A stretch of 64,000 nucleotides of DNA from Candidatus Dadabacteria bacterium (GTDB lineage Bacteria > Desulfobacterota_D > UBA1144 > Nemesobacterales > Nemesobacteraceae), in the NCBI GenBank assembly GCA_009837205.1, contig VXTZ01000026.1, forward strand, positions 83,629 to 147,628, given 5' to 3'. Below, piece by piece: positions 1 to 42,825 of this stretch (its first letter is position 1; every line of letters begins with the position of its first letter). Under the pieces are notes generated by a model. That model ran no database searches. It had not been told where the DNA came from and saw only the letters and a list, made by a program, of their open reading frames with translations. The position numbers were made by a program, and so were the translations under genes.

Positions 1-1
1 T

Positions 2-352
2 GAGAAGCTCAGACGCTGGAGCGCCTCAGGTGCGGGATTTCATCCCGAGGCCGTAAAAGAGTATGTTCGCTGTTTCAGCGATCCGCGCGCAATCCATGCA
101 AGCTGCGAAGACTACAGGGCCGCGGCCTCCATAGATATTGTCCATGATGAAGAAGATATGGACGCCAGGATAACGTGTCCACTTCTTGCCCTCTGGGGCG
201 GAAAGGGGTTCATTCACAGAACCTATGACGTGCTTAGCGTATGGAGGGAAAAAGCGCTCAGCGTTTCGGGAAAACCGCTTGACTGCGGCCACTTTGTCCC
301 GGAGGAAAAACCCCGGGAGACCTCCGCGGAACTGCTGTCATTTTTCAGGTAA
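2..352 (+). CDS. alpha/beta-fold hydrolase, C-terminal fragment (N-terminus lies upstream of window)
   Basis: Frame is open from nt 2. Translation '...[34 protein letters not shown]...[10 protein letters not shown]' matches the C-terminal cap and catalytic-His region of haloacetate-dehalogenase/epoxide-hydrolase-type alpha/beta hydrolases. GC-rich relative to what follows. Confidence 0.6.
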
Positions 353-685
353 GGGGTTTCAGCAAGGAGAAACCGTAAGGTTTTTGCTGAAAATTATTTA
401 CGGTTCAACCGTTCTACATCAAGCCCGCTTTGGTATTGATATGTCTCGTAAGGTTGTAATCATAACAATTCCCCATACCGTTTTGATATCTTAGACGCTT
501 TACTTTCTCTTTTTTCTAAAATATAATTTCAATCGCTTACAACTGAAGAGGTCCCGCTACGTCGGGTCTCTGTGAATATAAAACCCGATTCCAGGGAAAT
601 AAGCAGAACGTCCAAATCTCTTTGGTTGTAAGCAAGGCCCGGCACCCACGTGTGTCGGAGATCAGCTTACTGGAGGTATTAATTC

Positions 686-1102
686 ATGAGGAAACACCGC
701 CTGATTTATGGATTTTCTGTTTTAGCCGTTGCAGTAGTATTGGGATTGTTCTATTACGGCACGAAGAACGATGCTAAACAATCTAATTCACACATTATTC
801 CATCCGATTTGAATTCCACCCCCTCTCTTTCCAATAAAGTGTCGGAATCGGTGCAGAAGGATAAGCCTCAGGTTTCCATTAAAAATAAGTCTCTTAAGCA
901 GCCGGAACATCGACCGGTTAAGCAAGAACCCCAGTTCCAGCCTGACACGGTTGATGGAAATCCAATAATCCTTACAAAAAAGAAAGTCGTGCTCGAAGAC
1001 GGGAAAGAAATTATGGTCTTTGAAAATGTTCCTGATTCATGGAGGACAGAGACCGAAGTACATTTTGATAAGGGGGGCAAACCTCATGTTACACATCGCT
1101 AA
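686..1102 (+). CDS. hypothetical membrane-anchored protein (N-terminal TM helix, Pro/Gln-rich linker, small C-terminal domain)
   Basis: ORF with an N-terminal hydrophobic segment (FSVLAVAVVLGLFYY). AT-rich. Directly upstream of and overlapping the metalloprotease start. No recognisable family. Confidence 0.4.
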   Translation: MRKHRLIYGFSVLAVAVVLGLFYYGTKNDAKQSNSHIIPSDLNSTPSLSNKVSESVQKDKPQVSIKNKSLKQPEHRPVKQEPQFQPDTVDGNPIILTKKKVVLEDGKEIMVFENVPDSWRTETEVHFDKGGKPHVTHR

Positions 1103-2393
1103 CAAATGGATTTTCACTCTATCCTTTTTCTTCATTATGGCCGTATTCCTCCCGGTTCAGGAGAGTGTGGCAACAACATTTAGAGCAATATACGCTGATG
1201 CTCCAGGTACAGGGTTTTATGATGAAACCCATATGACTGATCAGCTTGCCCAGGGCAATATTATCGGTACAACCGTCGGAGAAGTAAGAAGAAACGCATT
1301 CGAAGCTGCTCTTGATATTCTAGAAGAAAATATTTCAACTAACAACAATGAAGGAGTTGTAATACAGGCGTCGTTTGATGATTTAGGAGCGCCAAGCTCA
1401 AGAGGTATAGTTCTTGGTGGAGCTCTCCCAGCAGATCATGTTTTTTTAGGACTAGTTCCTGGGTTACCAGTTTGTTCAGCATCATCTTTTTTTCAAACAC
1501 CACCACAGTGTTCGGTTCCTTTACTCAACGAGCCGGGGGTTGTGGGAGTGCCTTTAGCGCTTGCTGAACATATTACGGGACAAGGATTTAACGGAAATAA
1601 TCCAGATATTCTAATAAAATTCAATGAAAGAGCTCCATTTTATTTTGGAACAGAAACCACGCCTTTTAATTACGTCAATTTTGTTCTAGTAGCAGCGCAT
1701 GAACTATTCCATGGTCTGGGGTTTTACGATTCATTTCGAGAGGATGGTAGTTTTATTGCATTAACGGAACTGGGTGGCAGTCTGGTTCCTGTGTTTTCTT
1801 ATTACGACATAAATCTATACTCAGAAAGTGAAGAAGACTTGCTTGTAAATCTTTCGCAGTCTGAAAGGCGGAACGCTATTACCTCAGTAGATGGTCTCTC
1901 ATGGGATGGGACGCTAGGAGGCCTATTTGATACTAGTTGTGGACAGCTTATGGGCGAAGCTTTAATGGATTATTACCCATCTGCCGTAGATAAAGAAGGC
2001 CGACCTCAACTCTATGCGCCTAGACCTTACGAGCCAGGGAGTTCTATCTCACACTTTGTTCAAACTTCTAAAGACTTAATGAAGCCTTCAGTCGATGGTG
2101 TAGAGCATGCTGACTTCACGCTTGGGGTGCTTTTGGACATGTTGTGGGTTGTAGGAGATATTTCCCCTGACCGATTAGAAGTTCTTGAAGATTGCCTCAC
2201 TAGTTCTGGAGGAGAAACAGAGCCAGAATCTACACCTGCTCCTGATACACCAGGGCAATCAAGTGGCGGGGGCAGTGGTGGTGGATGTACTATTGCGGAA
2301 ACTCAAGCCATGTCGCAAAACACTATTTTAAACCTGCTTTTAATCCTGCTTACTATGGTTCCTTGCTTTCAACTATACAGGAGAGGAGGTTAA
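1086..2393 (+). CDS. secreted zinc metalloprotease (HExxHxxGxxD metzincin-like) with C-terminal Gly-rich/Cys + TM + Arg sorting tag
   Basis: Start chosen at the ATG preceded by an AAGGGGGG RBS. Signal peptide MLHIANKWIFTLSFFFIMAVFLPVQESVA. Zinc-binding motif HELFHGLGFYD. C-terminus ...GGGSGGGCTIAETQ..ILNLLLILLTMVPCFQLYRRGG. Confidence 0.7.
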   Translation: MLHIANKWIFTLSFFFIMAVFLPVQESVATTFRAIYADAPGTGFYDETHMTDQLAQGNIIGTTVGEVRRNAFEAALDILEENISTNNNEGVVIQASFDDLGAPSSRGIVLGGALPADHVFLGLVPGLPVCSASSFFQTPPQCSVPLLNEPGVVGVPLALAEHITGQGFNGNNPDILIKFNERAPFYFGTETTPFNYVNFVLVAAHELFHGLGFYDSFREDGSFIALTELGGSLVPVFSYYDINLYSESEEDLLVNLSQSERRNAITSVDGLSWDGTLGGLFDTSCGQLMGEALMDYYPSAVDKEGRPQLYAPRPYEPGSSISHFVQTSKDLMKPSVDGVEHADFTLGVLLDMLWVVGDISPDRLEVLEDCLTSSGGETEPESTPAPDTPGQSSGGGSGGGCTIAETQAMSQNTILNLLLILLTMVPCFQLYRRGG

Positions 2394-2630
2394 GGTTGTT
2401 ACGAAAAACAAAAGCATCCTTTAAGTAAGAGGTGGTGATCAGCGCAAGCTTGTAAGGGATTAAATGTAGGCAAACATTTACCCGTCGGAGAAGTTGCGAA
2501 GGTAATTCAGTGAATGACAAGCAGCCGTGGCAAGTTAAACTGGATGATTCAATGAGAGTAATATCATATTCCGCTTTGGCGATGTCTACAACGTTGACTT
2601 GATTGACTACCGCTAGAAAGAGGCAGCAAT

Positions 2631-2933
2631 ATGACGATAAACAGTCCGCCGCATCCCGACCGCAGCATCAGGGAAAACTGCCTAGCCCCACTTGGGTTGA
2701 ACGTTACCGAAGCGGCAAAAATTTTGGGTGTTGCTCGTCACACGCTTTCGCGCATACTGAACGGCCATGTGGCAATTTCACTGGAGATGGCTATCAGGCT
2801 TGAGAAGGCGGGATGGTCCAATGCCGAGTTCTGGCTACGTCGCCAGACCACTTACGACCTGGTGCAGGCACGCAAGGGCGAAGACCGGATCAATGTTGAG
2901 TTCTACCGGTCGCAGCGGACGGAGAAGGAATGA
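2631..2933 (+). CDS. higA: HigA-family antitoxin (XRE HTH)
   Basis: [77 protein letters not shown] matches the HigA 'NPPHPGE...GLS..LA..LGV.R...S.I.NG...IS..MA.RL...G.S.EFWLNLQ..YDL' consensus. Confidence 0.8.
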
Positions 2934-3095
2934 ATACCGAACATGAGCACAGCAAAAAGCCCGTAGCAATACTTAGCCGGATATAGGTTCAGGTACCAAG
3001 AAAGCCAGTTGGTCTGTAAGCTGAGTTCTGTTAAATACAGTCATTCATGTCCTTGTAAAATATATCTCTGCAGACATGGGGACGGGGAGTTACAA

Positions 3096-3332
3096 ATGCC
3101 GTTAGAAAAACCACTTGCATATTTCAGGAAGCACCAGGAAAAATTTGCCCGGGAGCACCATGGGAAATTCGTGGTTATCTATGAAGAAGATGTAGAGGGC
3201 TTCTACAAGAGCGAATTGGAAGCATACACAGTCGCAATAAAAAAACATCCGGACGGATTGTTTCTTCTTCGGCAATGCCTAAGGCTCGAAGAAGAAAACG
3301 TGGCTGTGTTCCACTCTAGGATTGCTGGCTAA
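3096..3332 (+). CDS. hypothetical small protein (possible TA-associated; alternative GTG/ATG start at 3009)
   Basis: ORF between higA and vapB. MPLEKPLAYFRKHQEKFAREHHGKFVVIYEEDVEGFYKSELEAYTVAIKKHPDGLFLL resembles small DUF5678-like proteins often found next to TA loci (low certainty). Confidence 0.35.
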   Translation: MPLEKPLAYFRKHQEKFAREHHGKFVVIYEEDVEGFYKSELEAYTVAIKKHPDGLFLLRQCLRLEEENVAVFHSRIAG

Positions 3333-3506
3333 CTGTCTCCGGAAACGAATCATTCGTCATTCACCATCAAGTTTCCAGGTGCGGCTGCAGTACTTGAAAA
3401 AATACTTGCCTGACTTTCCAAATTCCGTCACGCCTATATATTGATTTTGTAAAAGAGATGGAGAAAGGGAAATCTTGACTCACAAGGAAGGATTGCAACA
3501 AATGAG

Positions 3507-3782
3507 ATGGCCATGCACATCGTAAAAATTTTTAAGAGCGGCCGTAGCCAAGCTATCCGCATACCGAAAGATTTCGCCTATGAAGGCGTAAAGGAGCTGA
3601 CCGTGCGGAAAATCGGCGAAAAACTGATCTTGGAACCAGTACGCAAGTCTTGGCTGACTCTGTATGACGAGATCGAGCCGTTAGGAACAGATGACAACTT
3701 TCTGGCTGATCGACCTGACTTGTTCGCCATTGACGAAAGCAGGGTGAAGTTTAAATCTGTTCGCATAAGCCGTAACAGATGA
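3507..3782 (+). CDS. vapB: AbrB/MazE-fold antitoxin, VapB-like
   Basis: MAMHIVKIFKSGRSQAIRIPKDFAYEGVKELTVRKIGEKLILEPV is the classic SpoVT/AbrB swapped-hairpin antitoxin N-terminus (K.F.SGNSQAVRIPKEF...). Confidence 0.75.
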   Translation: MAMHIVKIFKSGRSQAIRIPKDFAYEGVKELTVRKIGEKLILEPVRKSWLTLYDEIEPLGTDDNFLADRPDLFAIDESRVKFKSVRISRNR

Positions 3783-3997
3783 TCGTTTCTGTTATAACCG
3801 GTGACTGCATATTACGACTGAATTCCGAGTGCGCGAGTTTCAAGTTAATTGACGCAGTAAAAACGTTTCTCGCAGTCATCACCAAAACGCTTTTCACACT
3901 CTCCAAGAATGTGAGAAGTGTATACTACGAATCCCCGTCGTTATTGAGATTGAGAAGTGGACCTCAGAAAAAACAGGTTGCAATCCTTATTCTTTAG
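3779..3997 (+). pseudogene. short ORF start-overlapping vapB stop (ATGA); probable truncated/decayed toxin gene
   Basis: A 72-aa ORF in the position where a ~130-aa PIN/VapC or MazF toxin is expected. No PIN acidic quartet is recognisable. The frame closes after 72 codons and no continuation is found in other frames. Confidence 0.3.
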
Positions 3998-4059
3998 TGT
4001 AGTTTTCTGAAACGAAATACGACCGGATATGTGGAATTAATATTCTAGGTGACACAGCC

Positions 4060-4488
4060 ATGCAGACCACTGTATTAGATGTAGCCGAGTATATACTTCA
4101 GAAGAAAAAACCAATCCCTGCCATGAAATTGCAGAAGTTGGTCTATTACTGCCAAGCTTGGTCATTGGTATGGGAAGACAGGCCCATTTATAAAAACAGG
4201 ATAGAAGCTTGGGCTCATGGTCCTGTAGTTGTCGACCTGTATTACGCCCACAGAGGTGAATATATGTTGGAAAGCGTCGGAGGCAATCCTTCAATTCTTT
4301 CCCAATCAGATATTGAGACCATTGATGCTGTTTTGGAATATTACGGCGAGAAATCTTCACAATGGCTGTCGGATCTCACCCATCAGGAACGCCCATGGCA
4401 AAAAGCTCGCAGGTCCCTGCCGAGAGGGCAGCGGGGAAGTGAGGAAATAACGCTGGCATCCATGGCGGAATATTACGGTTCTCTCTGA
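4060..4488 (+). CDS. Panacea-domain (DUF4065, COG3600/GepA/SocA-like) antitoxin
   Basis: KLQKLVYYCQAWSLVWEDRPIYKNRIEAWAHGPVVVDLYY and the C-terminal LTHQERPW match the DUF4065/Panacea core (KLQKLLYY.Q.W.L......LF.E.FEAW..GPV...LY ... THxExPW). Confidence 0.75.
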   Translation: MQTTVLDVAEYILQKKKPIPAMKLQKLVYYCQAWSLVWEDRPIYKNRIEAWAHGPVVVDLYYAHRGEYMLESVGGNPSILSQSDIETIDAVLEYYGEKSSQWLSDLTHQERPWQKARRSLPRGQRGSEEITLASMAEYYGSL

Positions 4489-4505
4489 TAGGTGGACATA
4501 GATGC

Positions 4506-4961
4506 ATGGTCAAAAAACGCAACGGTCGAAAACGTCCGAAGAGAAAAGCGAATCCTGATCCCAAAAAATCCCCACAAATTCAAACCGGCGTTCAGGAGTC
4601 GTTTCAAGGGCACAAAATAAGATGGTCTTTTTCTATTCTGGATATGGGCGGTCCTTTCGGGTGGTCAAAATGTTCGGTCTCCGTTCTGAATGATGTGCTA
4701 AAGCCACGACTCAGCAATTTTGAAACTATGACTTGGGCAGAAATTGAATCCCACAGGCACCATTCTATTCCAACAGGAGATCTTTCAACACAGGCCCAAA
4801 AACGTCTTTCTGACAAGAAGCTAAGCGATGTGGATGAGGTTTTTTCCTTGGCAATAGGTAGCAAAGAGAGAATTATAGGGATTCGTGACCGTGACGTCTT
4901 TAAATTGCTTTGGTGGGATCCGAAGCATGAAGTCTGCCCATCAACGAAAAGACATACATAA
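4506..4961 (+). CDS. uncharacterised 151-aa protein, polybasic N-terminus; candidate toxin partner of the Panacea antitoxin
   Basis: Starts 17 nt after the DUF4065 gene on the same strand. N-terminus KKRNGRKRPKRKANPDPKK. C-terminal ERIIGIRDRDVFKLLWWDPKHEV is reminiscent of the RelE/ParE terminal beta-hairpin. No known family assigned. Confidence 0.5.
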   Translation: MVKKRNGRKRPKRKANPDPKKSPQIQTGVQESFQGHKIRWSFSILDMGGPFGWSKCSVSVLNDVLKPRLSNFETMTWAEIESHRHHSIPTGDLSTQAQKRLSDKKLSDVDEVFSLAIGSKERIIGIRDRDVFKLLWWDPKHEVCPSTKRHT

Positions 4962-5158
4962 TCCTCAGGGCCGATGACTGACAGGCTGGTCGGAAGCCGG
5001 TTCTCTACAATAGATTTACAATCGCCCCTTCAACCACTTATCAAGAACGGCGTAGTTCTACAGGACTGTCCTGTCATCCCAATTCATATAGAGCGTACTG
5101 TCAGTTCCCCGTTCAAACGAGTTCTTTATAATTCTCCTACTTCGTATAAATTATCATC

Positions 5159-6118
5159 ATGTCGAAAATGCTTTTCGTGATGGACCCGATCGAGTCCATA
5201 AACATAAACAAGGACACCACTTTCGTCATAATGCTCGAATGCCAGGCAAGAGGGCACGAAATTCGCTACTGCGAACTCAAGGATCTTTTCGTAAAGGACT
5301 CCGAGGCATGGGCGGATTCAACCAAGCTTCGTCTCGAGAGAAAGAGTGATTACTACTCAAAGGGATTAACGGGAACTTCTCCGCTTGATGACTTCGACAT
5401 CGTATGGATGAGAAAAGATCCCCCCTTCAACATGGACTATATCTACTCGACCTACATACTAAACAGGGTTGACGAGTCCGAAACGCACGTGATAAACCAC
5501 CCGGCCGGTATACGGGAATCTAACGAGAAGATGTACAGCCTTAATTTCGCCGACTACATCCCCCCTACTCTGGTTTCAAAAGACATAGAAAAACTGAAGG
5601 AATTTCTCTATGAGACCGGCAACGAGATTGTGGTAAAACCGCTTGACGGCTACGGCGGGGAGGGAATTTTTCTCGTAAGGGCCGATGACCCTAATCTCAA
5701 CGTGATACTCGAGAGCATAACCGACTTCGGGCGGACCTACGTGATGGCCCAGAAATTCATAAAAGAGGTTTCGCAAGGAGACAAAAGGGTTATAATTCTA
5801 AACGGCCAGCCCATAGGAGCCGTGATGAGGGTAGCCGCAAAGGGAGAATTCAGAAGCAATTTCCACTCCGGAGGATATCCCGAGAAAACCACTCTTACGG
5901 AAAGGGACCTGGAAATATGCGACGGCCTCAGACAGAAACTCTTAGAGGACCGGCTCTATCTGGTCGGAATCGACATAGTCGGAGGGTATCTGACCGAAGT
6001 CAACACCACTAGCCCGACATGCGTTCAGGAAATAAACTTTTTCAGCGGGGTAAAGCTTGAATCGCAGATAGTCGATTTTGCTGAGAGTATTATCCGCGGG
6101 ACTCCAGAGAGCCTTTAG
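5159..6118 (+). CDS. gshB: glutathione synthetase (ATP-grasp)
   Basis: MSKMLFVMDPIESININKDTTFVIMLECQARGHEI... is collinear with E. coli GshB (KLGIVMDPIANINIKKDSSFAMLLEAQRRGYEL...KPLDGMGG...TEINVTSPTC). Confidence 0.9.
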   Translation: MSKMLFVMDPIESININKDTTFVIMLECQARGHEIRYCELKDLFVKDSEAWADSTKLRLERKSDYYSKGLTGTSPLDDFDIVWMRKDPPFNMDYIYSTYILNRVDESETHVINHPAGIRESNEKMYSLNFADYIPPTLVSKDIEKLKEFLYETGNEIVVKPLDGYGGEGIFLVRADDPNLNVILESITDFGRTYVMAQKFIKEVSQGDKRVIILNGQPIGAVMRVAAKGEFRSNFHSGGYPEKTTLTERDLEICDGLRQKLLEDRLYLVGIDIVGGYLTEVNTTSPTCVQEINFFSGVKLESQIVDFAESIIRGTPESL

Positions 6119-6156
6119 AAAATTCCTAGGCGGGAAGCTAACGCAGGACTCTAACA

Positions 6157-6453
6157 ATGAAAATATCCAAAGAAGATGTGCTTAACACGGCCGAGCTTGC
6201 AAGGCTCGAGTTTGATGACGAGACGCTTTCGAAGTTCACCCGTCAGCTCGGGGACATCCTCATCCATATAGATGAGCTTGCCGAGCTTGACACGAAAAAC
6301 GTGGAGCCCACATCGCATGTGCTTGAACTCTCAACTCCTTTCCGAAAAGACGAGGTAAATCAGCTAATAACTGCTGAAGACGCCCTTAGCAACGCACCCA
6401 GCAAAGAAAACGATTTCTTCACGGTTCCAAAAGTCATAGAGGACCAGAGCTGA
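6157..6453 (+). CDS. gatC: Asp-tRNA(Asn)/Glu-tRNA(Gln) amidotransferase subunit C
   Basis: [46 protein letters not shown] is the GatC consensus. Immediately upstream of gatA. Confidence 0.9.
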
Positions 6454-6457
6454 CCCA

Positions 6458-7921
6458 ATGTCCATTCCAAGAACCATAAAGGAAGCAGCCGCGTTAATAG
6501 AGAGAAAAGAGGCCTCCCCGGTGGAACTCGCCGAACTTTTTCTCGAGCGCATATCCTCCGAGGACGCAAAAATAAACTCTTACATCACCGTCTGGAAAGA
6601 AGCGGCCTTGGAGGCCGCCAGAGAGGCGGAAAAAGAGATATCCGAAGGAAACTATCTGGGACCTCTCCATGGGGTCCCGATAGCGCTTAAGGATATTTTC
6701 GTGACAAAGGACTCGCGTACCACCTGCGGCTCGAAAATGCTGCGGGATTTCATCGCTCCCTACAATTCCACCGTGGCCGAAAAACTCATGGCGAGCGGTT
6801 CCGTAGTACTCGGGAAAAACAACATGGACGAGTTCGCCATGGGATCTTCAAACGAAACATCTTACTTCGGACCGGTAAGAAACCCCTGGGACACCGACAG
6901 GGTTCCGGGAGGATCAAGCGGAGGAAGCGCCGCCGCCACAGCGGCAAATCTGTGCGTCGCGTCAGTCGGAACAGACACCGGGGGTTCCATAAGGCAGCCC
7001 GGCTCCCTCTGCGGAGTAGTGGGAATGAAACCCACCTACGGAAGGGTAAGCCGCTACGGCATGATTGCATTCGCTTCTTCCCTCGATCAGGCGGGACCGC
7101 TTGCGAAAACCGTTGAGGACGCAGCCATAATCCTCTCCTCCATAGCAGGCCATGACCCGATGGATTCAACATCCGTAAACCTTCCGACCGCTGATTACGC
7201 AAGCGCGCTCAATACGGACATAAAGGGGCTACGGGTCGGCATACCGAAGGAATACTTCATCTCGGGGATGGATCCCGAAGTGGAAGAATCCGTCCGCAAA
7301 GCTATCGCCGAACTTGAAACCATGGGAGCGGAAATTGTGGAGATTTCGCTTCCTCACTCCCGCTATACGGTCTCAACCTACTATATAATAGCCCCTTCGG
7401 AAGCAAGTTCGAACCTAGCAAGGTACGACGGAGTAAGATACACATACCGCTGTGAAAATGCGGAAACCCTGAGAGATCTGTTTTTCAGAAGCCGCTCGGA
7501 AGGGTTCGGAGACGAAGTGAAGAGAAGAATAATGCTTGGAACCTACGCCCTTTCCACAGGCTACTATGACGCCTATTACCTGAAAGCCCAGAAGGTAAGA
7601 ACCCTTATAATAAGGGATTTTGACAGCGCCTGGGAAAAAGTTGACGTGATAGCGAGCGCCACTTCTCCTGAAACCGCTTTCAGAATAGGCGAAAAAGCAG
7701 ACGATCCCCTTAAAATGTACCTATCCGACATATTTACCATTCCCTGCAACATAGCAGGACTCCCCGGAATATCAGTCCCCTGCGGATTCAGTTCAGAAAA
7801 GCTTCCGATAGGGCTTCAGATAATGGGAAAGCCATTCGACGAGCAGACAGTGCTCAACGTTGCGTACGCTTACGAGCAAAGCACGAAGTGGTACGAAAAA
7901 GAAGTGTCCCCTCTTGGATAA
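6458..7921 (+). CDS. gatA: Asp-tRNA(Asn)/Glu-tRNA(Gln) amidotransferase subunit A (amidase signature)
   Basis: 487 aa with the amidase signature [10 protein letters not shown] and catalytic-Ser region. gatC-gatA order. Confidence 0.95.
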
Positions 7922-8004
7922 TCGCAACCCAGGATACACCTCAGCCCAAAAACATGTTATCATCGAAATATGAAGCTTCTTTTCCCGGTACAGGAGGACG
8001 GGTT

Positions 8005-8169
8005 ATGAGCAAAGAAAAAAAGTGTACCGTATGTGGCAAGCCTTCTCCCGATTTCATATGCGAGTCATGCAAGTCGAATATTCAGGCTGAGGCCGTGGGC
8101 AAGAAATCAAAGATGGAAAAGCAGGTGAAGGTAGGCGGTTCAATAGCCGATAAGCGTTCAAAAGAATAG
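8005..8169 (+). CDS. small zinc-ribbon protein (CxxC...CxxC)
   Basis: MSKEKKCTVCGKPSPDFICESCKS... preceded by an AGGAGG RBS. The longer ORF-track version (from 7888) overlaps the gatA 3' end and is probably not the real start. Confidence 0.4.
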   Translation: MSKEKKCTVCGKPSPDFICESCKSNIQAEAVGKKSKMEKQVKVGGSIADKRSKE

Positions 8170-8174
8170 TAGCT

Positions 8175-9026
8175 CTATTCTTCCCAGATTTCGAGGGCGA
8201 TCCTGTATACGCTGTTCTTCAACGCCCCAGAGGATTCGCAGACCGTGCGTACTGCATCACTGAGAGCGGTCCCGCTCTCTTTCATTGCGCGAAGCGTCCT
8301 TTGCACTTCTTCTATTGAGATCTCTCCTCGCCCTTCCCCGTTGCCCTCTAAAACAATTGTCACTTCCCCCTTAATCGATTCTTTCTTTGAAAGAATCGAT
8401 ACCACCTCCGAAACTGATCCCCGGATTACCTCTTCGTAAAGTTTTGTCATTTCCCTAGCAATGCAGATATTCCTGTCGCCGAGAATTTCCAGCATAAGAC
8501 TCAAGGTGCGTGAAAGTCTTCTGGCGGACTCGTAAAAAACCATGGTGTATGGGTAGGATTTTACGTCCTTTAAAAGCTCTTTCTTCTTGCCTATGGTCTT
8601 CGGGAAAAAACCGAGAAAAAGAAAACTGTCTGTGGGAAGTCCCGAAACAACAAGTGCAGAGAGGACAGCCGAAGGACCGGGTATGGGAACTACTTCTATA
8701 TTGTTTTCAATTGAGAGATTTACAAGCCTCCACCCAGGGTCGGAAACCGAAGGAGTTCCGGCATCGGAAACCAGCGCCACGTCTTTGCCGTCTTTGAGTC
8801 TTTCAAGCAGCTTGGGCGATTTTTCAACTTCATTATGTTCATGATAGCTAGTGAGAGGGGTTTCGATCCCGTACCGGGTAAGGAGTTTTTTTGTGTTTCT
8901 CGTATCCTCGCACGCTATAACGTCGCAATCCTTAAGAACGTTTACAGCCCGCAAAGTTATGTCTTCAAGATTTCCTATCGGGGTAGAGACTACGAAGAGT
9001 TTTCCAAACATACTGTTATTCGGCAA
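8175..9026 (-). CDS. rsmI: 16S rRNA (cytidine1402-2'-O)-methyltransferase
   Basis: GKLFVVSTPIGNLEDITLRAVNVLKDCDVIACEDTR is the RsmI/tetrapyrrole-methylase N-terminus. 283 aa. Start may be the internal ATG at 9011. Confidence 0.9.
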   Translation of the reverse strand: MPNNSMFGKLFVVSTPIGNLEDITLRAVNVLKDCDVIACEDTRNTKKLLTRYGIETPLTSYHEHNEVEKSPKLLERLKDGKDVALVSDAGTPSVSDPGWRLVNLSIENNIEVVPIPGPSAVLSALVVSGLPTDSFLFLGFFPKTIGKKKELLKDVKSYPYTMVFYESARRLSRTLSLMLEILGDRNICIAREMTKLYEEVIRGSVSEVVSILSKKESIKGEVTIVLEGNGEGRGEISIEEVQRTLRAMKESGTALSDAVRTVCESSGALKNSVYRIALEIWEE

Positions 9027-9036
9027 ATTCCGCTTT

Positions 9037-10056
9037 CTACGTTTCGTATATATCGCGAAGTTCTTTCAGAATATCATCTAATAGGTTGCGGAACTTTTTC
9101 CTATTTACCTTGACACTTATTTCCGGATGAGCAAGCTCTACTCGATGGTTTCCGTGCTTTCCTGTAAAGTTGCTCAGTTTTGAATCACCAGTCTTTGAAT
9201 CATGGCTTTCCAGTTTCCTTTCCATAGCCGTGTACAGGGCCAAATACAATTTGTAACGGTAATAATCGTCTTTGTTCCTATCGAATCCTAATGCCTCAAC
9301 GAGTCGGAGAGTCGTTCTCTTGTTTTTTTCTATGTCAATCTTAATATCCTCCTCGAGGCCGTTGATCAATTTCTGTAAACGATCAGCTTTTACTCTTAAC
9401 TTCTCATCGTCCGTAGGAGCTTCAGCAACTAGCGTTGCACTCACAATTGGCTCTGGTTGGATATAGATCATGCGTCCATCTATATCGAAAAAGCAGGAAC
9501 GGCTAAAAACCTCTTTAATTGGGTCTTTACTTCTCTGTTCTATTCTTATGGCAGTAAGAATCATATCGACAAACTGATCGACACTATCTTCCTCTTCGGG
9601 CCATGTACTATCTGAAGTTTTCATTGTCATTATAATTTCTCTGCCAGAGAGGCCTCCCTGTAAAAATTCCTCACTTATAATGAAACAAGTATTTTCATCC
9701 ATTATGGTCTCGCATGGAATTTCTTGCTCTATTACGACAAAAAGAGAGGAGCCGTCTTTTCGGGAATTAACTTCCTCCTTCTCTACCTCTTCAACTTTGT
9801 GCCTAAAAGAAGGGGAAATTGAATAGTGATGGAACGGACTGTATTCCTCAAAGTAAGATTTCAAGTCTGAGACTACTGTCGCTCTTGATTGTTCCCGCTT
9901 GGCAATTAATAGGGGTGCAACCTTCATTTCAGCTTGTAAAAATATCCTAGGAAATTTGAATACATGAGTGTAGCAACGCCTCTTAATTTTGCACTTTGTT
10001 GGATGCCCATTCAATCCCCCTATATACATACGTTTAAGCCCAGCTTTCGTTAGCAT
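9037..10056 (-). CDS. hypothetical 339-aa protein, low-GC; C-terminal RVELAH (Rx4H, HEPN-like) motif
   Basis: Long ORF with no recognisable family. Its GC is visibly lower (~40%) than neighbouring core genes. Lies between rsmI and the tRNA-Ser region. The C-terminal 'GNHRVELAHPE' fits the Rx4-6H HEPN motif (speculative). Confidence 0.5.
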   Translation of the reverse strand: MLTKAGLKRMYIGGLNGHPTKCKIKRRCYTHVFKFPRIFLQAEMKVAPLLIAKREQSRATVVSDLKSYFEEYSPFHHYSISPSFRHKVEEVEKEEVNSRKDGSSLFVVIEQEIPCETIMDENTCFIISEEFLQGGLSGREIIMTMKTSDSTWPEEEDSVDQFVDMILTAIRIEQRSKDPIKEVFSRSCFFDIDGRMIYIQPEPIVSATLVAEAPTDDEKLRVKADRLQKLINGLEEDIKIDIEKNKRTTLRLVEALGFDRNKDDYYRYKLYLALYTAMERKLESHDSKTGDSKLSNFTGKHGNHRVELAHPEISVKVNRKKFRNLLDDILKELRDIYET

Positions 10057-10949: not shown

Positions 10950-11076
10950 AAGTTTTTTTCTCCAGTTTTATCTAAGGGTATATGCCTCTTTCATATCGTG
11001 GGATATAAAGAAGGGTTACTCTCTCCTCTTTCCACAAAAAATTTTTTATTTTCAGCAAGTTATAGATTAACAGTTG

Positions 11077-42671: not shown

Positions 42672-42712
42672 CGCAGGCACCGGAAACTTGAGAAAGCAAG
42701 GGAAGAAAAAAA

Positions 42713-42825
42713 GGGCAGCCACCTACTTTCCCACTCCTGAAAGGAGCAGTATCATCGGCCTATAAGGACTTAACTTCCGGGTTCGGGATGGGACCGGGTG
42801 CTTCCCCTTCAGCATAGCCACCCTA
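42713..42825 (-). rRNA. 5S ribosomal RNA (solitary)
   Basis: Reverse complement ...GGGAAGCACCCGGTCCCATCCCGAACCCGGAAGTTAAGTCCTTATAGGCCGATGATACTGCTCCTTTCAGGAGTGGGAAAGTAGGTGGCTGCCC. This matches the universal 5S loop C (CCCAUGCCGAACUCAGAAGUGAAAC) and the helix IV/V (GCCGAUGGUAG...GAGAGUAGG) blocks. It is followed by a T8 run. Confidence 0.85.

Follow-up and report, generated by a model that had tools for sequence, protein, structure and literature searches.

The described systems closest to the locus examined here are the type II toxin-antitoxin (TA) systems HigBA and VapBC, and the PanAT modules, in which the antitoxin PanA carries the Panacea (DUF4065) domain. PanAT modules have been predicted using a gap of ≤100 nt and a pairing conserved in at least two species as criteria, and ParE-type toxin domains are listed among the PanA partners (Kurata et al. 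2022, PMC8832971). Genes or gene relics related to each of these systems were found in a 64,000-nt stretch of DNA, hereafter the window, from a Candidatus Dadabacteria bacterium (GenBank accession number VXTZ01000026.1; coordinates 83629 to 147628), in an islet located between a gene for an alpha/beta-hydrolase-like protein and gshB, the gene for glutathione synthase. The islet also includes p78, which encodes a 78-amino acid (aa) protein resembling DUF5678 (PF18929) proteins, and the relic of a gene for a protease of the retropepsin-like clan AA (PF13650, TIGR02281/TIGR03698).

Each of these genes departs from the described arrangement. The HigA protein encoded in the window scores above the TIGR02607 cutoff, and its relatives are part of toxin-first higB-higA pairs with a full-length PF05015 toxin, but all that the window retains of higB is its last 18 codons, for which reason it does not carry a functional HigBA pair. 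Likewise, VapB scores above the NF040493 cutoff, and in relatives the vapB stop overlaps the start (ATGA) of a vapC gene for a 136-aa PIN-domain toxin, whereas in the window vapC is a fragment of ~25 nt that lies beyond 1.25 kb of DNA inserted after vapB, and VapB has a foreign 8-residue tail. The window panA gene is followed after 17 nt by a conserved partner, p151, as in PanAT modules, and the pair is found in at least three lineages. However, the p151 family has no Pfam domain, and a basic N-terminal extension of ~35 residues precedes its predicted RelE/ParE-like core. With its 17-nt gap and a pairing kept in three unrelated contexts, PanA-p151 falls within the limits used to predict PanAT modules (PMC8832971). 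Finally, homologues of p78 match DUF5678 but p78 itself lies under Pfam detection, and the gene downstream of p78 in relatives encodes a DTGA motif and matches Asp_protease_2, whereas the window has a gutted protease gene beside p78.

The reading favoured here, at a probability of roughly 0.85, is that the islet is a filled variable site containing three decayed modules, into which the PanA-p151 pair was inserted later.

A variable site upstream of gshB

Genomes were scanned for GshB, one genome per species, giving 41 loci, most of them from metagenome-assembled genomes of Candidatus Dadabacteria (Thermodesulfobacteriota) with 70–95% GshB identity. Related loci are denoted here by L and a number. 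Only ~72–100 bp separate the stop codon of the hydrolase-like gene from the start of gshB in ~20 related Dadabacteria species, which therefore have an empty site. As nucleotide homology with these genomes ends at position 355 of the window and returns at position 5137, the sequence from 356 to 5136 represents a variable site in its filled form. The same gap in 10 other species contains differing subsets of the genes for HigA, p78 and VapB (83–94% aa identity), and as these modules are found again and again in precisely this place, their clustering is not due to chance.

A first-pass annotation, made from the window alone, had described the open reading frames (ORFs) upstream of gshB, all on the plus strand, as a decaying TA hotspot. 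The ORF calls and profile matches bear out that description, as do the intact higBA and vapBC genes of relatives and their relics in the window. These intact ancestral states were recovered by comparing the locus across related genomes, as the annotation had proposed. It had also considered that the short ORFs might prove to be conserved small proteins, but the relic ORFs were not conserved in relatives and the 72-aa ORF downstream of vapB was absent everywhere else.

The higBA remnant

An intact higB gene lies directly upstream of higA in L005 and L019, where it encodes a 92-aa HigB (PF05015, 1.4e-19), but no such gene is present in the window, as had been noted in the first-pass annotation. 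The window HigA, encoded by an intact ORF (Table 1), shares 83–89% aa identity with the HigA of 6 relatives. From position 2563–2566 onward, the sequence preceding higA is 82–89% identical in blastn alignments to the higB genes of relatives, and the alignment of the relic with relatives' HigB has a score of 66, which was reached by none of 300 shuffled sequences.

A frame reading NDKQPWQVKLDD had previously been pointed out as a possible higB relic. This frame is indeed present, at positions 2510–2602, but it is not the higB remnant, as the true relic uses overlapping DNA in another frame. The NDKQPWQVKLDD frame scored 28 against HigB, and with 21 of 300 shuffles scoring as high, this is not significant. 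An extension of the relic into the 169 bp upstream of position 2563 was likewise rejected, as the DNA-level score was reached by 72 of 500 shuffles.

The higB gene has been disrupted in different ways in the various genomes. Large deletions are found in L014 and in the window, and an in-frame internal deletion in L012. In L010 and L011, higB carries a CGA-to-TGA nonsense mutation, at codon 8 in L010 (coordinates ~9363–9400) and at codon 3 in L011 (coordinates ~9136–9145). Outside the nonsense codon both genes are ~95% identical to intact copies, and in sequence they look like recent toxin knock-outs.

The vapBC remnant and the 72-aa ORF

Intact vapC genes, each overlapping the vapB stop codon, were found in L005, L007, L010, L013 and L041. 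The encoded proteins match PF01850 (1e-11) and NF047863 (8e-26), and the nearest NCBIfam models are those of tRNA(fMet)-specific VapCs, which they match under the respective cutoffs. The window VapB shares 85–94% aa identity with the VapB of 10 relatives. Homology of the gene to its relatives stops at position 3756, which corresponds to the native junction between the vapB stop and the vapC start, and the new C-terminal tail of VapB, SVRISRNR (codons 3757–3779), is encoded by foreign DNA.

What is left of vapC was found beside gshB (Table 1), by alignment with the intact vapC of L007 and L013 and with the relic loci L011, L014, L015 and L019. The region gives blastn matches of 83–86% identity over positions 5044–5300, and apart from the vapC fragment itself the remnant consists of a gshB-proximal sequence (type B) that is common to relic-bearing loci. 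When the fragment was compared directly with vapC, the local score was 14, a value that 4 of 500 shuffles attained. The breakpoints of the vapC deletions differ among L012, L014, L015, L019 and the window.

The DNA following vapB includes a 72-aa ORF, p72, with a start codon that overlaps the vapB stop (ATGA) and no PIN motif, and the ORF call and family scans agree with the first-pass annotation on both points. The overlap resembles the native vapB-vapC junction and the frame remains open for 72 codons, as would be expected if p72 were a genuine gene for a truncated or novel small toxin, with its translation coupled to that of vapB. However, the overlap sits in non-homologous DNA, 24 nt past the native vapB stop. 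No Pfam or NCBIfam match was found for p72, nor any PIN match at E-values up to 1–10, and the sole match among 5.8 billion proteins was p72 itself, with a source list that does not include NCBI, unlike those of neighbouring proteins from the same genome. The stretch from 3757 to 4013 is absent in all 41 loci and lies outside the region of homology to the related PanA locus. Two segments of p72, IVSVITGD and RIPVVIEIEKW, appear VapC-like by eye, but its identification as a vapC pseudogene was rejected, as its Smith-Waterman scores against the VapC of relatives did not exceed those of shuffled sequences in any frame or at the DNA level. The earlier view of p72 as a truncated toxin downstream of vapB is thus not sustained, and the true vapC fragment is found 1.25 kb further on, past the PanA pair. 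As p72 is absent from the 41 loci, is outside the PanA homology, is unlike VapC and has no homologues, it is probably not a gene but a chance ORF in junction DNA, and it is very improbable that it encodes a toxin of any kind.

The PanA-p151 module

Downstream of this DNA, the window carries panA and p151 (Table 1). None of the 38 homologues found for p151 has a Pfam domain. A p151 homologue lies 6–23 nt downstream of a Panacea-domain gene in three unrelated neighbourhoods (L042–L045, L046 and L047), namely at another Dadabacteria site, following uvrD, in a region that carries F-type conjugation genes, and on a Desulfobacteraceae contig. The ratio of nonsynonymous to synonymous substitution rates (dN/dS) is ~0.15 for panA and also ~0.15 for p151.

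Structure prediction suggests a RelE/ParE-like fold for p151. All members of the p151 family have a Lys/Arg/Pro-rich N-terminal tail, predicted to be disordered, ahead of the RelE-like core (p151 residues 1–35; window coordinates 4506–4610), and a tail of this kind is unusual for RelE/ParE toxins. The first-pass annotation had singled out the PanA module as the only one in the window that still looks intact, and both the effector relics elsewhere in the islet and the conserved PanA-p151 pairing are in line with this. PanA-p151 appears to be an intact PanA module, specific to this lineage, that was inserted into what was left of vapBC. In this module, p151 would act as the toxin and would be neutralised by PanA.

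An imperfect direct repeat of 23 nt (74% identity) is located near the right edge of the insert, with one copy at the end of panA (coordinates 4476–4498) and the other just past p151 (coordinates 4998–5020). It is probably due to chance.

The p78-protease pair

The p78 protein has no Pfam match of its own, and its previous description as DUF5678-like holds only by transitivity. A p78 profile found 857 homologous representative proteins, and 26 of 71 p78-profile homologues match PF18929, with a best E-value of 2.8e-9. The AlphaFold2 model of p78, with a predicted local distance difference test (pLDDT) score of 88, consists of an alpha-beta-beta-alpha-beta domain and a disordered tail that includes a conserved motif, FHSRV. 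The model had no informative structural neighbour.

A gene for a retropepsin-like protease was found directly downstream of p78 homologues, which range from 92% down to 42% identity, in L053, L056, L057–L059 and L060/L061. Where full-length, the protease is 161–190 aa and includes a DTGA motif. Examples of a p78-family gene abutting an intact protease gene are seen in L056 (coordinates 2001–4234), L053 (coordinates 2501–3298) and L057 (coordinates ~2000–2816). The protease ORF in L012 matches PF13650 at 1e-6.

Compared with the L056 gene, which is intact and encodes 161 aa, the window relic consists of a 5' piece, LSPETNHSSFTIKF, joined to a 3' piece, CLTFQIPSRLYIDFVKEMEKGKS, which ends at the stop codon. 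The deletion between the two pieces takes out the DTGA catalytic region, and the relic lacks the combination of DTG(A) motif and PF13650 profile match that identifies a retropepsin. Two blastn blocks, at window positions 3097–3399 and 3398–3756, correspond to positions 8818–9120 and 9459–9817 of L012, and the 3' end of the relic was also found by tblastn (26 aa, 81% identity, E-value 5e-10). Hand-assembled relic peptides from the islet gave no match in a Pfam scan, being too short.

Judged from these alignments, p78 is what survives of a third module that has decayed, which was missed in the first-pass annotation. As the pair sits among classical TA modules, is conserved over the range from 92% to 42% identity and decays in the same manner, with the protease lost or gutted and the small gene kept, p78 and the protease are tentatively proposed as an undescribed TA-like module, with a cytoplasmic protease as the putative harmful effector and p78 as its putative inhibitor, though this assignment is doubtful. 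In the one paper retrieved for DUF5678, no two-gene module combining DUF5678 with a retropepsin-like protease was found, and a literature search on DUF5678 and on retropepsins together with toxin-antitoxin systems yielded nothing relevant, save a remark that proteins with a retropepsin domain occur close to type III CRISPR loci in archaea.

Selection on the orphan partners

Pairwise dN/dS for VapB is 0.02–0.16 among copies accompanied by VapC compared to 0.09–0.46 between orphan copies. For HigA, the value is 0.05 between two genomes with intact HigB, compared to 0.16–0.38 in comparisons involving relic-bearing genomes. The values for gshB are 0.06–0.14. Taken together, omega (the same ratio) is ~0.2–0.6 for the orphan partners and 0.03–0.1 for paired copies. 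Changes private to a lineage were also counted as nonsynonymous (N) or synonymous (S) and compared using the Fisher test. In HigA, orphan copies have N17:S10 and paired copies N1:S12 (p = 0.0017), and the window HigA has 9 N and 7 S private changes. The corresponding counts in VapB are N20:S11 for orphan and N8:S13 for paired copies (p = 0.09), and those in p78 are N8:S2 in the window and N8:S12 in other genomes (p = 0.058). The ratio (omega) derived from private changes in orphans is ~0.54–0.57, which is not distinguishable from neutral (p = 0.12–0.14), and for p78 in the window it is ~1.3.

Orphan HigA, VapB and perhaps p78 might instead be actively maintained, either for anti-addiction against an incoming higB, vapC or protease gene, or as transcription factors. 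The orphan ORFs are intact in several toxin-less species, and orphan copies may keep some function, as most orphan pairs have a dN/dS significantly below neutral. In addition, a deletion of the 3' part of vapC is common to the window, L011, L014, L015 and L019, hence vapB probably outlived vapC through several speciations. However, the private changes in orphans do not differ significantly from neutral, and the relaxation of HigA relative to paired copies is significant. The private changes of the window HigA include two, A46V and P51L, within the helix-turn-helix (HTH) region. Orphans are also lost, with vapB missing from L011, higA missing from L013 and everything missing from 20 species. 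The constraint on the orphans has clearly been relaxed, though the data do not demonstrate that it is gone, and they are compatible both with slow decay and with a weak remaining function such as anti-addiction. The first-pass explanation that the antitoxins are retained as anti-addiction modules is not borne out, given the relaxed constraint on orphan HigA, VapB and p78, and active maintenance of these genes seems rather unlikely. According to the decay reading, the orphan partners would have little or no remaining function.

Proposed history of the islet

The islet probably arose from an ancestor with three two-gene modules on one strand, namely higB-higA, p78-protease and vapB-vapC. Independent deletions, nonsense mutations and frameshifts have eroded the modules in different species, with the larger effector (HigB, the protease or the PIN-domain VapC) nearly always lost or disabled first and the ORF for the small partner (HigA, p78 or VapB) staying open. 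In the lineage of the window all three effectors have gone, leaving 18 codons of higB, a protease gene without its start and core, and a 25-nt fragment of vapC. PanA-p151, together with 257 bp of DNA, would later have been placed exactly at the junction of the vapB stop and vapC start, replacing the 5' part of vapC and providing VapB with its 8-residue tail, and p72 would be a chance frame created there. The order of these events is inferred.

Several points weigh against this history. The vapC fragment is short, and its identification leans largely on the intermediate relics in L011, L015 and L019. Pairwise dN/dS between orphans (0.09–0.46) is <1, with neutrality rejected for most pairs. Entry of the modules is not accounted for by any mobility gene, repeat or recombination site, and no origin was identified for the stretches 2394–2562, 3757–4013 and 4963–5034. 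In L010, L005 and L056 the modules are arranged in another order, and a single ancestral array is therefore a simplification.

This variation in order, the small size and single orientation of the islet genes, and the presence of modules at a second site downstream of uvrD would also suit a mobile cassette array, integron-like or assembled by a recombinase, in place of passive decay. However, no border repeats, attC-like sites or inverted repeats were found flanking the modules. No integrase or recombinase is encoded by the ORFs in positions 1–8000 of the window, the remainder of the 64 kb not having been screened for one, and the combination of attC-type repeats and a nearby intI gene that defines an integron cassette was not found. 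The nearest tRNA gene, at position 11076, is distant, and insertion sequence (IS) transposases occur only in L005. As the breakpoints cut coding sequence and vary among genomes, illegitimate deletion and occasional insertion fit the pattern better than a cassette system, and a cassette array is considered improbable.

The hotspot in L005 has grown to 7.4 kb (coordinates 2545–10001), and contains IS/transposase genes as well as a second copy of the 3' end of the hydrolase-like gene (coordinates 8403–8589). Intact vapBC and intact higBA with p78 lie on opposite sides. A second hotspot lies downstream of a UvrD-helicase gene, where L042–L045 (coordinates ~3500–4460) carry PanA-p151 and L054 (coordinates 2501–3964) carries p78 followed by vapBC. 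As the same modules are found at the uvrD site, they move between at least two chromosomal sites.

Other features of the window

The features of the locus are listed in Table 1. Between the hydrolase-like gene and the higB relic, the window carries lineage-specific cargo. The 457-aa ORF in this segment encodes a metalloprotease-like secreted protein with a C-terminal tail that resembles a sorting signal, and it matches NF038122 at 3.4e-6, which is under the cutoff. Homologues of the cargo that are ~40% identical are present in L002 and L041, at the same hotspot but in the reverse orientation, and no nucleotide homologue was found in the remaining loci. Downstream of gshB are gatC and then gatA.

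No Rfam element was found in the islet, and a scan for promoters and terminators gave nothing informatively above the shuffle expectation. There was also no meaningful match to the PADLOC defence models. A 5S rRNA gene is located on the minus strand of the window (coordinates 42710–42825), and as the 64 kb gave no 23S or 16S match at Rfam gathering scores, the gene does not seem to be linked to an rRNA operon.

Table 1. Features at the hydrolase-gshB site of the window, in order of position
Feature	Coordinates	Strand	Evidence or remarks
Alpha/beta-hydrolase-like gene, 3' end; left anchor of hotspot	1–352	+	tblastn and blastn against 36 related loci, 84–97% aa identity
Lineage-specific cargo: 138-aa ORF and 457-aa ORF (start 1020 or 1083)	686–2393	+	
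Stretch holding part of the NDKQPWQVKLDD frame, not demonstrably from higB	2394–2562	.	Local alignments to relatives' higB within shuffle range
higB 3' relic: last 18 codons, 6-nt deletion, 5' three quarters gone	2563–2616	+	DNA alignment with intact higB of L019 and L005
Orphan higA, HTH antitoxin, ORF intact	2631–2933	+	TIGR02607 6.7e-24, 83.5 bits (cutoff 47.7); PF01381 (HTH_3) 2.2e-8
p78, 78-aa DUF5678-like small protein	3096–3332	+	Small partner of conserved pair with retropepsin-like protease
Retropepsin-like aspartyl protease gene relic	3333–3478	+	Start ATG now CTG; ~338-bp internal deletion
Orphan vapB, AbrB/MazE-fold antitoxin	3507–3782	+	NF040493 5.6e-20, 71.3 bits (cutoff 60); PF04014 32.9 (24.7)
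Filler DNA, 257 bp, with 72-aa ORF p72 (3779–3997)	3757–4013	.	
Inserted PanA-p151 module	4014–4962	+	Nucleotide homology to another Dadabacteria locus covers this span only
panA, Panacea/DUF4065 antitoxin	4060–4488	+	PF13274 1.1e-19, 71.9 bits (gathering score 25.7)
p151, 151-aa ORF, putative toxin; RelE/ParE-like predicted fold, basic N-terminal tail	4506–4961	+	
vapC remnant beside gshB	5035–5136	+	5035–5059 is CACTTATCA, an 18-nt deletion, then AGAACGGCGTAGTTCT (vapC codons ~39–54)
gshB (glutathione synthase); right anchor of hotspot	5159–6118	+	NF003573 4e-119; 41 related loci

Implications

For annotation, p72 is best left out of the gene calls, and each of the three relics is best labelled as a pseudogene. 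Two by-products of the analysis are a family of PanA partners with a predicted RelE-like fold and no Pfam domain, and the conserved two-gene pair that encodes a DUF5678-like protein and a retropepsin-like protease. The phenomenon itself is ordinary TA turnover and leaves the current understanding unchanged. At a single orthologous site, compared over ~30 species of an uncultured phylum associated with sponges, the locus provides a well-resolved natural time series of TA decay, in which toxins have been knocked out repeatedly and independently, antitoxins persist under relaxed constraint, and a new module has been placed in the wreck of an old one.

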